The notes under the pieces: model-generated
The model's input: only the letters and a program-made list of their open reading frames with translations
What the model was told of the DNA's origin: nothing
Database searches by the model: none
Made by a program: the position numbers and the translations under genes
Part shown: piece after piece, positions 26,814 through 43,924 of the stretch
Numbering within the stretch: position 1 is the first letter of the stretch
Layout of the letters: each line of letters begins with the position of its first letter
Virus record (IMG/VR): IMGVR_UViG_3300025066_000012
Location: 32,001-96,000 of that record
DNA length: 64,000 nucleotides
Origin: a virus
Taxonomy: Duplodnaviria; Caudoviricetes
Direction: 5' to 3' (one strand)

Positions 26814-27486
26814 TTATTCCAACCTTCCCTTTAAAAGATCACTAAATTTAGTAACCTTGCCAGTCCTGTGATCTGTAACTTTATCTCTTTGAATCTGATA
26901 AGTTTTAATCTTATCTCCCCTCATTCCCGAGCCAACCTGAGAGGATCTAATCCTTGAGCGTTTTTTCCCAAGCGTATCAGATTCTATCTCATAAAGCTTT
27001 GCCCGAAGTAATCTTAAGGCGTTCTCTTTATTCAGGCGTTGAGAGCGCTCCTGCTCACATCGCACAGATATCTGAGTTGGGATATGCTTTAGCTGAACAG
27101 CAGAGTCAGTTGTATTCCTGTGCTGACCTCCCGCTCCAGAGCCACGACAGGTTTTCCATTCAAGATCTTTTTCTAAAATCTTTATGTCAGCCTGCTTAGG
27201 CTCCTCTAAAACTGCAACAGTTATTGTTGAAGTATGAATTCGCCCTCTTTTGTCAGTAGGGGATGCTCTCTGAAAACGATGACCCCCCGCTTCTCTGCCA
27301 AACATCTTTAAAGCATTCTTCCCTTTTACTAGGGCGATTATAATCCCTGGACGAGAATCTATTAGGCTTAAGCTAAAGAGAGTTCCGGCGACAGACCTTG
27401 GCGTAAATTCCAAATTGATCTTTAACAAGAAGTTTGCTGTCCCTGCCGCCTTCGGCGGCTCTAATCTCTAATATAATAGAATTCAT
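26814..27486 (-). CDS. Class I peptide chain release factor homolog lacking domain 1; needs +1 frameshift at CTT TAG C (27378-27372); about 223 aa
   Basis: AAGGAG SD plus MNSIILEIRAAEGG...RRNSL-TAG; +1 frame continues SLSLIDS...EAGGHRFQRASPTDKRGRIHTST...GSGAGGQHRNTTDSAV...ERSQ...KIKTY. Confidence 0.92.
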
Positions 27487-29961: not shown

Positions 29962-30981
29962 TTATTTGCTCAAAATATGTGTAGAACTCTCGAACTGTCC
30001 AGCGTTAGTTTGTCTTACAAAGATGGCCTTTTCTTGCAATTCTCGAACAGTCCTCGCTCCAGAATAAGAAAGTCCAGAGCGAATACCTCTTTCCAAATCG
30101 GCTAACACGTCTGCCACAGGCCCCTTGTATTGTACGGTCGTTGCTATGCCCTCTGCCGAGGCTTGCCGCCCGCGCCAATCCATCTGAGCATCTTTAGAGG
30201 CCATTCCTCGATAAGACTTAACTCTGCCCTCATTCGTTATAAGTATTTCGCCAGGAGTTTCGTCCGTTCCAGAGAGCAGTGAGCCAATCATTACAAAGCT
30301 TGCTCCTGCGGCAAGAGCCTTAACTATGTCTCCAGAGTTGCGAATACCACCATCTGCGATGATTGGCGCACAATAACTTGACTGAGAACAATCGATAATA
30401 GATTGTAACGCAGGCACTCCGTGTCCCGTCTGAATTCTTGTGCTACAGATGCTGCCTGAACCTATTCCCGTCCTTATGCTATCTGCTCCCCAATCAACCA
30501 AAGATTCATATCCATCTTTCGTTGCGACATTTCCGGCCATTATATGAATCAAACTTCCAAATTCTTTTTTCAAATTTCTTAAAGCAGTCTTCATCAGAAT
30601 GTGATCGCCATGTGCCGTGTCAACGCAGATGGTTCTAACGCCAGCATCTACGAGTGTGCGCGCACGCTGAAGCTCATCTGTTGACGTTCCTATTGCGGCA
30701 GCTATATGCGTTACGGCTCCTGAGCTAATGGCCTTTTTTGCAATCAAAGCCTGCCGCTCAGGCGTGTTGTACCTGTGAACAATTGAAAGACCGCCAGCCT
30801 TGCCCATTGCTATAGACATTTTTTCTTCTGTGATCGTATCCATTGGGCTTGATATAATCGGCAGCCTAAATTCAACATCGCCAAGCAAAGTGGTCGTGCT
30901 AACTTCTTTCCTGCTGCGTATATCTGAATATTGAGGCGCAATTAAAACGTCTCCATAGCTTAATGCTTCTTTAAATTTCAT
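29962..30981 (-). CDS. IMP dehydrogenase / GMP reductase family enzyme (no CBS domains)
   Basis: [29 protein letters not shown] (catalytic Cys), IIADGGI, YRGMAS, AEG; lacks the IMPDH flap Arg-Tyr. Confidence 0.93.
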
Positions 30982-31924: not shown

Positions 31925-32188
31925 TTATTCTCCCTCTTTGCTAGAACGCAAGTCTGTTGCTATCAATTTTTTATCCCAAGCCTTATTAAATTCTTCTTTT
32001 AGAAAATTACTAATTGCAGAGTCATCATATTCCCACCCTACAACTTCGCCATGAGACAAACCTTTGGCCGCCTCTGTAACAAGATATTCATCAATTGCTC
32101 CCTTATCATTTATATCGAAGTCGCTCAAATCTATATCGACTTCCGCTTCATGAGTAAGGATATAATCTATGGTTATTTTAATTTTCAT
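31925..32188 (-). CDS. Hypothetical protein
   Basis: Coupled ORF. Confidence 0.65.
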   Translation of the reverse strand: MKIKITIDYILTHEAEVDIDLSDFDINDKGAIDEYLVTEAAKGLSHGEVVGWEYDDSAISNFLKEEFNKAWDKKLIATDLRSSKEGE

Positions 32189-41234: not shown

Positions 41235-41981
41235 TTAAAAACTCGTAGCATGACTCATTCTTTCTTCCACAATTTTCGATACCCATCTTGACTTTAGATT
41301 TCTGTTAGCCAGGATAAGGGGCAGTGATGCAGTAGAAACCTTTGAAACCATTATTGCAAATGGCCTTTTGGCAATCTCTTTTGTTATCGCAACCTCTAAG
41401 CCCTTGTATCCAAACGGTGCCGCCATTGCCCCCATCACCCTAATGTCTGCCATTTTATCTGTTAACATTTCATCTAAACACTCGACTGCGCCGAGTCTTC
41501 CGAATACTATTTTGCGTATCTTCATATCACCATCATTCTTTAGAGTCCGCAAAGTATCTATAGAACAATGTTGTGCCGCAAACATTCTCTCATCAGTAAT
41601 CTTTGACTTTGCAAATTTATTTACAAATGATATATCTGAATAAAACCCATTATCCAAACAGTATTTTCTGGCAGAAGGAAGCTTTGATTTCTTGATGATC
41701 TGATCACCCAACTGTGGAAACCTGCTAATGGAAGCTCTAATAAATCGATTTACAAAAGTCCGTAAATAATAACCCTGATTATAGCTAGCATAGCCATAGC
41801 TCACATTAGAATCGGAATTTTTAATAACCTCAAATCCAGCATCTGTTAGGAGCAGCGCTTTGGCTTGGCCGAGAGTGATATTATCACAAACCTTATCACT
41901 TTTGTCTCGAAAGGCGGACCAATCATCAGCCTCTAAAACAGCGTCAATGTTACTAAAAAATTTAAGATTCTTACTCGCCAT
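41235..41981 (-). CDS. Helical (HEAT/LRV-like) repeat protein (paralog family)
   Basis: L..LKND.D.KIR / L.D...DIR repeats; C-terminus LPLIL...RWVSKIVEERM. Confidence 0.75.
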   Translation of the reverse strand: MASKNLKFFSNIDAVLEADDWSAFRDKSDKVCDNITLGQAKALLLTDAGFEVIKNSDSNVSYGYASYNQGYYLRTFVNRFIRASISRFPQLGDQIIKKSKLPSARKYCLDNGFYSDISFVNKFAKSKITDERMFAAQHCSIDTLRTLKNDGDMKIRKIVFGRLGAVECLDEMLTDKMADIRVMGAMAAPFGYKGLEVAITKEIAKRPFAIMVSKVSTASLPLILANRNLKSRWVSKIVEERMSHATSF

Positions 41982-42810
41982 CTTTGTTTCCCATTCTTAA
42001 GCTATCAATACTTTCAGTTGTAAATCCTGCTGCGTTTCTATGTCCACCGCCGCCGAATTCAAGAGCTACCTCTGACACATCTATTCCATTTTCTTTTGAC
42101 CTTAAAGAGAACCTGTATCTATATCCATCGAAAAAATAAACCGCAGCGTAATCTGCGCCTTCACTTAAAATATTCCCTATCTCTGATTGAAAGCAGGAAG
42201 AGTTTACGGCAATTACTTCGTCGCCAAGGATGTTTACCTTATGAGCATTCGAAACTACTGTTTTTATAATAGAGTTCTTATACTTTAAGATATCCCTTCC
42301 GGACTCCACCATTTGATACCAGCCACTAGAGTATATCATTCCAATCTTGTTATTTAGATTGTCCCAATTTGCAAAGGATCTATCATAGGAATCAACAACA
42401 CTTAAGATTTCTTTTGAATTTGGAATAGCCCAAGTCCACAAATCTCTGTCTTGAACGTGCTGAATCAGTGCTGGAACCGGAATATCCTTGAATAGATATT
42501 TCCACGCCAATACTGCTCCCGACTGATGCATATCAAAGTGGCAGTATTTTAAATCTGCACAAGCTTTCTCTGCCGTCTTATGGTGGTCTAAGACCACAAT
42601 GCTGGCGGCATCCCTTGCTATCTCCCTCATTATAGGCTCAGGGTAACAAAAGTCCACAATAAATACACTGCGGCCTTTGACGTTCGGAGGCTTGCAGTTG
42701 TGAAAGACCGGAACATATGTTGCTCCGCTCCCATATTTTTGATAGAATGACCATGCAGCACCAAATCCGTCTGGACAGCCCGCATGATACAGAATCATTA
42801 TTTTTGCCAA
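41971..42810 (-). CDS. DHH/DHHA1 phosphoesterase
   Basis: YH..CPDG, VDF, LDHH, DRDLW, SLRS, GGGHRNAAGF. Confidence 0.93.
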   Translation of the reverse strand: MAKIMILYHAGCPDGFGAAWSFYQKYGSGATYVPVFHNCKPPNVKGRSVFIVDFCYPEPIMREIARDAASIVVLDHHKTAEKACADLKYCHFDMHQSGAVLAWKYLFKDIPVPALIQHVQDRDLWTWAIPNSKEILSVVDSYDRSFANWDNLNNKIGMIYSSGWYQMVESGRDILKYKNSIIKTVVSNAHKVNILGDEVIAVNSSCFQSEIGNILSEGADYAAVYFFDGYRYRFSLRSKENGIDVSEVALEFGGGGHRNAAGFTTESIDSLRMGNKDGE

Positions 42811-43830
42811 TTAAACCTCCTTCGGAGAGTGTGAATACTTAATGCTTTTCACAAGAGGACACTCGTTTGTAATAATGAGTGTTATCGCCTTAGACATAGC
42901 ATCAAAGGTTTTAAAGGTTCTAAGAGAATTCTCACTGAACATCTTAAACTTTTTAAGCTTTTTTAAAATATCACACTTGCTTATCACAAGATTCGTTGTT
43001 CCAGTAAGATTGATCGACGCTATTAACATATCCAAGTTTAGCCAATTAACTTTTCTCGGCCTACCAGTCGTTACGCCAAACTCTTCTCCCAAAGAAGCAA
43101 TCTTTGAAAGCTCAGGATCTTCAAGTAAGCTAGAAGGAAATCTTGGATCTTCGCCAGACCTAGTATCATAAATCTTCGCAGCACCCCAAATGTTTTCAAT
43201 CTTCTGCGGAGGAAATCCCACAGAACATGCGGCATATGGAAGTGTGGTAGACGAAGTTACATACGGATAAAGTCCGTAATCAATATCAAGCCAAACTCCC
43301 TGAGCCCCCTCACATAATACATTTCCACTTAATTTTTCATCCCAAATAATATCTGGAGACAAAACATCTTTAGCTAAGATTCCGGTTCTAGCAGATTTAT
43401 CAGCATAGCAAGGAGCAATACCTTTGCTTGTTGTTCCTAGCTTTGCAGCTAGATGCCTCTTATCATAAGCGATATGCTTATCAGTTACAATGTGGCATCT
43501 TGGAGAAACCTTGACCAAGCTTGTGTCGAATCCATTATCTTCTAAATAGGATAATTCCTTCATAAAAGACTTCGGATGAAGAACACACCCAGGACCAACA
43601 ACAGAGGCTATTCCATAGAATACGCCGGATGGAACAAGGTGAGTGCTATACTTTTTATCATCAACCCAAACTGTGTGTCCTGCGTTGTTTCCTCCCGCCC
43701 ACCTTACAACGAAATTATACTTACCACTACTCGCCAAGTAGGCTGTAATCTTTCCTTTTGCTTCATCACTGGGGTTTTAACCCCAGGCTAAACCAATTAC
43801 AATATCTGCAAAATTGACTAACCTGGACAT
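42811..43830 (-). CDS. purA: Adenylosuccinate synthetase (short form), interrupted after codon 17 by a 12-nt TAA-containing insert
   Basis: AAGGAGGT SD plus MSRLVNFADIVIGLAWG[*NPS]DEAKGK...GGNNAGHT, HLVPSG, GTTSKGIAPCY.DK, EGAQG..LDIDYG.YPYVTSS, GVTTGRPR. Confidence 0.93.
43769..43786 (-). other. Stop-in-loop hairpin CTGGGGT-TAAA-ACCCCAG inside purA
   Basis: Perfect 7-bp stem with 4-nt loop starting with the in-frame TAA (43779-43777). Confidence 0.85.
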
Positions 43831-43924
43831 AAAAGCACCTCCTTTTCTTTCTTCTGCCTTGGGGTGTTAAGGTTTTTTCTACTAATTTCAAGGCAAATAG
43901 TAGAGGCCACTATTACATACCAGA

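Follow-up and report, generated by a model that had tools for sequence, protein, structure and literature searches.

The question raised by this locus is how a canonical PurA-type protein could be obtained from a gene that is broken by a stop codon within its P-loop. The gene lies in a stretch of DNA of 64,000 nucleotides (nt), referred to here as the window, which corresponds to positions 32,001 to 96,000 of the 113.5-kb IMG/VR virus record IMGVR_UViG_3300025066_000012, from a marine phage (34% complete according to CheckV). The whole interrupted purA gene extends from 43830 to 42811 on the minus strand, as do all its parts, and the break falls after the Trp-Gly pair of the P-loop. Since solved PurA structures align from residue 12 onward in a structure comparison, this places the break between the Gly and the catalytic Asp. 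Reading of the sequence revealed a strong Shine-Dalgarno (SD) sequence, AAGGAGGT (43844-43837), and, on comparison with relatives as well, a leader open reading frame (ORF) of 17 codons, MSRLVNFADIVIGLAWG (43780..43830), starting at ATG 43830 and ending at the putative take-off codon GGT (43782-43780). The following 12-nt coding gap (43768..43779) reads TAA AAC CCC AGT and is made up of the stop TAA (43779-43777), the rest of a loop, and a 3′ arm complementary to the codons just before; its last triplet, AGT (43770-43768), is the presumed landing site. Reading then continues in the frame of the leader with GAT GAA GCA AAA GGA AAG and 312 more codons, giving 318 codons, the first of which encodes the catalytic Asp (GAT 43767-43765), ahead of the stop at 42813-42811 (42811..43767; PF00709, 2.5e-75). 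As stated in the original prediction, made by a model from the letters alone, removal of the 12 nt restores the PurA motif, in the form GLAWGDEAKGK found in dozens of uninterrupted homologues. The analyses described below indicate that the gene is probably expressed by programmed translational bypass over a scar that would protect the DNA against an endonuclease.

The insert itself is real: eight other assemblies carry it in identical form, which excludes an assembly artefact or a private mutation as its source. A truncated 308-residue product is on record from 12 contigs, and the seven of these that were fetched (six ENA assemblies and one Logan run), all from different samples, showed 100% identity with the window over 201 nt around the site, insert included. 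The same 12-nt insert and downstream ORF were found in JGI metagenome contig L091 (L-numbers denote contigs of relatives fetched for comparison, and P-numbers database proteins). The comparison of strain variants with and without the 12 nt, suggested in the original prediction, gave the identical insert in all copies and no uninterrupted allele above 73% identity, this being the value for the nearest uninterrupted protein among 5.8 billion. A blastn search of the region against the phage collection gave no match.

The same codon is interrupted in related phages. Interrupted relatives were located by following N-terminally truncated or oddly started homologues to their contigs, and further ones by degenerate DNA patterns in viral and metagenome contigs; most metagenome matches to these patterns were due to chance, in ordinary purA N-termini, and were dropped after translation. 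About 16 of the best 120 protein clusters are interrupted. A total of 14 distinct inserts, the window's included, lie between TGG GGT and GAY GAR, the relatives being 58-73% identical. Their lengths are 8, 11, 11, 12, 12, 13, 13, 13, 14, 14, 29, 30, 32 and 32 nt, that is, eight different lengths in which all three frame relations are represented. Nine are short (11-14 nt) and consist of TAA, a loop of 3-6 nt and the complement of the preceding codons; four are long (29-32 nt), with TGA first, a hairpin tip CC-TTCG-GG and then an A-rich tail; the remaining one has 8 nt. The take-off codon is GGT in 14/14 cassettes, whereas uninterrupted genes use GGT, GGC, GGG or GGA, and in every cassette a stop follows immediately (UAA, or UGA then C). 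The last triplet is GGN in 11 of the 14 and AGY in the other three, the window among the latter; in the 13 cassettes of relatives it is GGT or GGC (7), GGA (4) or AGC (2). The match of AGT to GGT in the window is two letters out of three, a weak point already noted in the original prediction and a real one. The 8-nt cassette, TAACTGGT (L136, 363-400), has a perfectly matched GGT landing triplet, and both the hairpin and the leader extension described below are missing from it; it is the minimal form, possibly of separate origin or else derived by deletion from a 13-nt cassette.

Folding of the RNA revealed a take-off hairpin (43769..43786), CUGGGGU-UAAA-ACCCCAG, with a 7-bp stem whose 5′ arm includes the take-off GGU, and a loop, UAAA, that contains the stop codon; the hairpin, SD sequence and ATG were thus all found as originally described. 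Its energy in a 43-nt context is -16.6 kcal/mol (z-score, z = -3.1), and 2 of 200 shuffled sequences fold as well. An equivalent hairpin, with different loops, is present in the eight other short cassettes, and most relatives gave significant values (z = -5.0 in L024 and -4.5 in L038), the 8-nt cassette being the exception (z = -0.2). The long cassettes form a stem of at least 11 bp with Trp-Gly in its 5′ arm. They read GGU UGA CC-UUCG-GG UCA, to be compared with GGA UAG CC-UUCG-GG CUA in gene 60 of phage T4 (NC_000866), where a 50-nt translational bypass is associated with the MobA homing-endonuclease element (Manning and Atkins, bioRxiv 10.1101/2022.08.31.505936) and where CC-UUCG-GG is the conserved tip in gene 60 homologues (same source). 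Both the long cassettes and gene 60 fold with the take-off codon in the 5′ arm. No Rfam family matched at the purA site.

A second structure was identified 5′ of this hairpin. Short-type interrupted genes alone combine a strong SD sequence with a 3-residue N-terminal extension, MS[RK][LQ], which is missing from uninterrupted genes, and the RNA of the extension pairs with the Leu-Ala-Trp-Gly codons. The entire leader forms one stem-loop (43782..43827 in the window, by RNAalifold) in which codons 2-5 are paired with codons 14-17 as far as the first G of the take-off codon, abutting the take-off hairpin. In the alignment this helix has 10 bp and 94% of cells paired, with AGG (Arg) facing GCC (Ala) or AAG (Lys) facing GCU (Ala) in 9/9 genes; the alignment of related phages proposed in the original prediction has yielded both a stop after GGT in all 14 cassettes and compensatory pairing, the latter in this leader helix. 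The minimum free energy of the window leader is -16.1 kcal/mol (z = -3.4) and that of short-type leaders ranges from -14 to -26 kcal/mol (z from -3 to -6 in 8/9), whereas the leaders of 10 uninterrupted genes are unstructured (z from -1 to +1.9). The SD sequence of short-type genes is of the strong GGAGG type (GGAGGT in 8/9, GGGAGGT in L137), as opposed to a weak AGAGG in uninterrupted relatives. By analogy, the leader stem-loop has its counterpart in the 5′ stem-loop of gene 60; for the latter, it has been proposed that refolding behind the ribosome is what drives forward movement. The role of the conserved MS[RK][LQ] extension as a peptide is inseparable from its role as RNA.

The distribution of the cassettes and the DNA next to them point to a mobile origin. 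A quick maximum-likelihood tree placed interrupted genes in seven or more positions among uninterrupted genes. For the window gene, the body clusters with genes that carry long cassettes, and the 5′ module is of the short type, with a peptide nearly as in L029. Short-type genes have about 40 nt of upstream DNA in common; this conserved intergenic element (43854..43892 in the window; alignment columns 1-45) is common to the window, L033, L075, L042, L129 and L138 and does not occur upstream of uninterrupted genes. In relatives it sits between purA and a homing-endonuclease gene: in L138/L139 and L075/L089 the interrupted purA is adjoined, across the ~40 nt, by a divergent gene with a match to the homing-endonuclease family phrog_3339 (3.5e-20) and to PF24308 (Pfam DUF7487), with a TnsA-like N-terminal nuclease domain. 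This gene is intact in L138 (1516-2385, minus strand), L139 and L075, and a 30-residue remnant occupies the same place in L032/L033 (L033 1462-1884), a series resembling the decay of mobA in T4-type phages. No endonuclease gene was present at the fetched uninterrupted loci (L003-L016) or beside the window purA, where 94 nt separate the genes. The endonuclease link, like the leader helix and the gene-60-like long cassettes of relatives, had escaped the first reading.

We propose that the cassette, the strong SD sequence, the extended leader and the ~40 nt of upstream DNA would together be the footprint of a free-standing homing-endonuclease element. The endonuclease would target the conserved P-loop coding sequence, the insert would destroy this target, and the endonuclease gene would later have been lost from the window phage. 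The logic is that of T4 mobA and gene 60: in that system the bypassed insert shields the DNA against the nuclease, and decay of the nuclease gene is common (bioRxiv 10.1101/2022.08.31.505936). Within the upstream element, ACCCCAAGG nearly repeats the 3′ arm of the take-off hairpin; read from the other strand, it nearly repeats the interrupted site. It may be what is left of the sequence targeted by the endonuclease, serve as a promoter or operator, or act as a third partner in the pairing. Long-range pairing of ACCCCAAGG with the take-off site was considered by eye and rejected, as RNAalifold chose otherwise and the leader helix explains the data better.

The alternative that survives best is an immunity scar in a dead or crippled gene, in which the insert protects the DNA from the homing endonuclease or arose in break repair, no full-length PurA is made and its loss is tolerated. 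Such a view would be compatible with the poorly matched AGU landing triplet of the window, with a 2-nt deletion in L041 that changes GGC to AGC relative to its sister L028, as decay might do, with the nature of PurA as an auxiliary metabolic gene, and with the identity of all window-type copies, for which post-insertion selection is not measurable. The pattern of substitutions speaks against it. Within the interrupted set, the ratio of nonsynonymous to synonymous substitution rates (dN/dS) is 0.12 at the median and 0.18 at most, with dS mostly saturated. In agreement with the earlier statement that the remaining 318 codons keep all recognisable motifs, the window gene matches 110/110 of the columns conserved at ≥95% in 100 uninterrupted relatives, where other interrupted genes deviate at 0-3 columns and uninterrupted genes at 0-5, and none of the interrupted genes contains a second lesion. 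The frame, start, SD and amino-acid sequence of the leader ORF are kept across many synonymous changes; between the window and L029, seven leader differences are synonymous and one is non-synonymous and conservative. The clade L024/L028/L041 shares one long cassette across a dS above 1, with dN/dS of 0.07-0.09, and the cassette evolves more slowly than synonymous sites (30/32 positions identical between L024 and L028, as compared with ~63% of flanking synonymous third positions). These data indicate that the interrupted genes remain under purifying selection, and a dead gene is accordingly rather unlikely.

Programmed bypass, on the contrary, would give the selected enzyme from each of these genes. 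After translating the leader of 17 codons, ribosomes would pause at a point where GGU is occupied by peptidyl-tRNA(Gly) and the A site by the stop UAA. This tRNA would then detach from its codon, and the mRNA would be moved forward by 12 nt, aided by the take-off hairpin, whose 5′ arm holds GGU, and by the leader stem-loop refolding behind the ribosome. The tRNA would re-pair with the triplet that closes the gap, which is AGU in the window and GGN in most relatives, and decoding would resume at the catalytic Asp codon, yielding normal PurA. A single mechanism of this kind, with peptidyl-tRNA(Gly) leaving GGU, fits all 14 cassettes and would produce the canonical enzyme each time. From the anatomy of the site, its recurrence, the RNA structures, selection and the nuclease neighbourhood, we infer such a hop with considerable confidence at the level of the family, and with more reserve, although still on the favourable side, as a working process in the window copy. 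The compact hop from GGU to AGU put forward in the original prediction has in this way gained strong comparative support (the same codon, eight lengths, three frames, a stop after GGU, hairpins and selection), the mismatched landing being the part that did not.

Several observations weigh against this interpretation. The landing AGU differs from GGU at the first codon position, and in homologues of gene 60 the codons for take-off and landing invariably agree, wobble aside (bioRxiv 10.1101/2022.08.31.505936); because of this mismatch, the hop may work poorly in the window copy or have been disabled recently. In four short cassettes the landing triplet is GGA, normally not decoded by a tRNA that reads GGU, and in the short cassettes the hairpin, through its complementarity to the Ala codon, partly dictates the GG of the last triplet. 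The leader peptide has 14-17 residues, far below the length of the gene 60 nascent-peptide signal, and the short gaps leave no room for an SD-like motif 6 nt ahead of the landing site. The covariation in the leader helix may reflect a single evolutionary event. Much of the purifying selection may predate acquisition of the cassettes if these spread horizontally, and the 12 known window-type copies are identical, so selection since the change to AGU is not measurable. Finally, the endonuclease link is based on three lineages, and no copy of the gene was found in the 113.5-kb record, itself only a part (34%) of the genome.

Less probable than a dead gene is translation of the insert, by readthrough (12 nt), +1 frameshifting (13 nt) or -1 frameshifting (8, 11 and 14 nt), which would give a PurA with 3-5 extra residues before G-D-E-x-K-G-K. 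The shifted or readthrough frame is indeed open in every short cassette and ends in Pro-Gly or Gly before Asp-Glu, GxxxxGK would survive, G GGG U is a possible -1 slip site, and gene callers have produced such proteins (P0036, P0044, P0056, P0071, P0093). Nevertheless, three mechanisms would be needed for what is evidently one evolving element, and the 29- and 32-nt inserts, as read from their sequences, have stops in the frame that a shift would require. The would-be slip site is inside the hairpin instead of 5-9 nt upstream of it, the inserted peptides are unconserved (LNTPG, KSPG, NYPG, xNPS, LTG), and the extra residues would add length to the link between strand and P-loop in a catalytic loop that does not vary among the 100 uninterrupted relatives. 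We consider this explanation improbable.

A slightly poorer prospect is removal at the RNA level, where the hairpin of a micro-intron would be recognised and excised, as in editing, and the mRNA religated before translation. In its favour, the hairpin marks the site and exact removal restores the frame. However, inserts of 8-32 nt are far below the size of group I or II introns, the bulge-helix-bulge (BHB) geometry is missing, and no Rfam family matches here; since the insert comprises just the loop and a single arm, cutting would have to occur at asymmetric sites; no hairpin at all is formed by the 8-nt cassette; and a stop right after a Gly codon together with a Gly-like last triplet would serve no splicing role. 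A self-splicing or BHB intron was rejected on the same grounds, and for neither the micro-intron nor a switch controlling PurA, both raised in the original prediction, was anything found in support. An assembly or sequencing artefact, or a recent private template-switch mutation, for which the quasi-palindromic relation of the insert to its flank would be the expected pattern, is refuted for practical purposes by the eight independent assemblies, the 13 other cassettes at the same codon in diverged phages and the leader and upstream element shared with them, although a template-switch event may have given rise to the first short cassette.

Two other candidates, re-initiation and an alternative genetic code, were rejected. 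No in-frame start was seen between the stop and TTG 43737, a codon already past the P-loop. With genetic code table 11, the remaining ORFs of the window look intact, and a recoded TAA would leave the 13-, 14-, 29- and 32-nt inserts unexplained. The identity of the enzyme was also considered. PurZ, of the 2-aminoadenine pathway, has Ser at the position of the PurA catalytic Asp (bioRxiv 10.1101/2025.10.22.683976). The enzyme is of the PurA type and not PurZ, because the Asp is present and the score with the PurZ model NF038379 is 86.6 bits, far under the cut-off of 300; no sign of a 2-aminoadenine pathway was seen. The PF00709 fold, the catalytic Asp of GDE and the His of NAGH are kept, skipping of the 12 nt is required for a complete P-loop, and the gene encodes about 335 residues, like the Pyrococcus PurA structures 2d7u and 5k7x.

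Programmed bypass at purA would have its closest parallel in T4 gene 60. Both have a Gly take-off codon with a stop directly after it, a take-off stem-loop holding this codon in its 5′ arm (with an identical CC-UUCG-GG tip in the long purA cassettes), a second stem-loop 5′ of the first and, in most of the purA cassettes, a Gly-type landing triplet. In both, the insert lies in a highly conserved coding sequence beside a free-standing homing endonuclease that can decay or be lost, and the cassette is scattered across the tree of the host gene. They differ in that the purA cassettes interrupt the P-loop of PurA instead of the large subunit of topoisomerase II, and that purA is not split in two. 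The nuclease of the relatives combines DUF7487 with a TnsA-like domain, unlike the HNH nuclease MobA, and the purA gaps measure 8-32 nt as against 50 nt in gene 60 (20 nt in its shortest known clade). The purA site is 14-17 codons from the start, too close for a long nascent-peptide signal; an SD-like motif ahead of the landing site is missing from the short gaps; and among the landing triplets are GGA and AGY, neither of them a wobble equivalent of GGU. The hop at purA is, moreover, a predicted one. A cassette homologous to that of MobA and gene 60 was rejected, given the different host gene, the different nuclease family and the window without an adjoining nuclease.

Other systems share fewer features. 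Short tRNA hops over a stop or slow codon in Escherichia coli reporter constructs, as far as reviewed in bioRxiv 10.1101/2022.08.31.505936, are unprogrammed and artificial events of about percent level; in these too, a peptidyl-tRNA travels a few nt, leaving the codon ahead of a stop for a similar one immediately beyond. With GGU, a stop and GGU 8 nt on, the cassette of 8 nt looks exactly like them, whereas the purA sites are natural and conserved and have dedicated RNA structures in a gene under selection. The byp elements of Magnusiomyces capitatus mitochondria (27-55 nt, as cited in the same source) are likewise many short mobile non-coding inserts in conserved protein genes, with matched take-off and landing codons and an efficient bypass presumed in that account. 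Unlike the purA cassettes, they belong to yeast mitochondria, have an unassigned sense codon and not a stop in the A site, and, according to the same account, have spread like GC clusters to dozens of sites without an endonuclease partner.

Full-text literature searches returned no report of bypass in purA, nor in phage genes beyond gene 60 homologues and one Streptomyces phage candidate. For more than 30 years T4 gene 60 alone has represented efficient programmed bypassing in phages, and the extension of 2022 covered only homologous cassettes in the same topoisomerase gene. If confirmed, the purA cassettes would constitute an independent bypass family in another gene, and a natural mutational series of 14 cassettes with eight lengths, three frames, two architectures and both matched and mismatched landing triplets. 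Such a series bears on the minimal needs for take-off, slide and landing, on mRNA refolding as a driver and on the dependence of landing on re-pairing, and it adds to the case that homing endonucleases are recurrent drivers of recoding-signal evolution in conserved phage genes. More speculatively, marine jumbo-type phages might hold an undescribed, diversified family of natural short-range hops of 8-14 nt, whose distance would be set mainly by the two abutting stem-loops of the mRNA (the leader helix refolding behind the ribosome and the take-off hairpin) and not by strict codon-anticodon re-pairing. A second, gene-60-like architecture would have been recruited independently to the same codon, both serving as immunity inserts against a new class of homing endonucleases, with hop efficiency perhaps tuned by the phage's own release factor (see below). 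We regard this proposal as tentative and, taken as a whole, doubtful; a hop distance set by stem-loops would explain the persistence of GGA and even AGY landing triplets.

The interruptions also affect annotation, as gene callers truncate interrupted purA genes or misframe the leader, in 16 of the best 120 protein clusters. Public gene calls for genes with 8-, 11- and 14-nt cassettes (P0036, P0044, P0056, P0057, P0071, P0093) have a misframed leader or a misplaced start, giving plausible full-length proteins with a false N-terminus.

The purA site was the sole cassette identified in the genome scan for further stop-in-loop hairpins that had been suggested in the original prediction. A search for a stop, a gap and a matching codon gave 1096 unspecific matches and was uninformative; under stricter stop-in-hairpin criteria, the 113.5-kb record yielded the purA site together with weak hairpins of 6-7 bp, mostly A/U-rich and, by their coordinates, located within long ORFs that are read in a different frame. 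As an exact 19-mer, the tip of the long cassettes matched just one unrelated hairpin outside purA, with no sign of spread to other genes. Endonuclease relatives among viral contigs came to two distant matches, and the one inspected, in the 255-kb contig L143, has a repeat-rich, giant-virus-like context from which purA is missing. There, tandem genes with many DUF7487-type repeats (GVE[NY]P.QS; L143 50-5787) adjoin a large protein with repeats read by eye as HNH/AP2-like; the region, unrelated to purA, looks like a nest of nuclease-type genes.

Nearly all long ORFs of the window are on the minus strand, and they include genes for GroEL, an SbcCD-like nuclease, an ATP-dependent ligase and an IMPDH/GMPR-type enzyme. 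A DHH/DHHA1 phosphoesterase gene (41971..42810, minus) abuts the purA stop; it follows purA without a gap in all relatives, in the same operon arrangement. The gene with the IMPDH/GMP-reductase fold (29962-30981, minus) is located 12 kb downstream of purA, and only 2.3 kb downstream in L138. Together, the three genes look like a purine-interconversion module. The window also encodes a class-I release-factor-like protein (26814-27486, minus) with PCRF and RF-1 domains, whose best NCBIfam match is RF1. Between the start and the body of its gene stands CTT TAG C, the layout of the prfB +1 frameshift site but with UAG. The codon-recognition tripeptide is PxT in RF1 and SPF in RF2, and in this protein it reads SPT. 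A release factor made by the phage could influence how often termination or the hop takes place at the purA stop.

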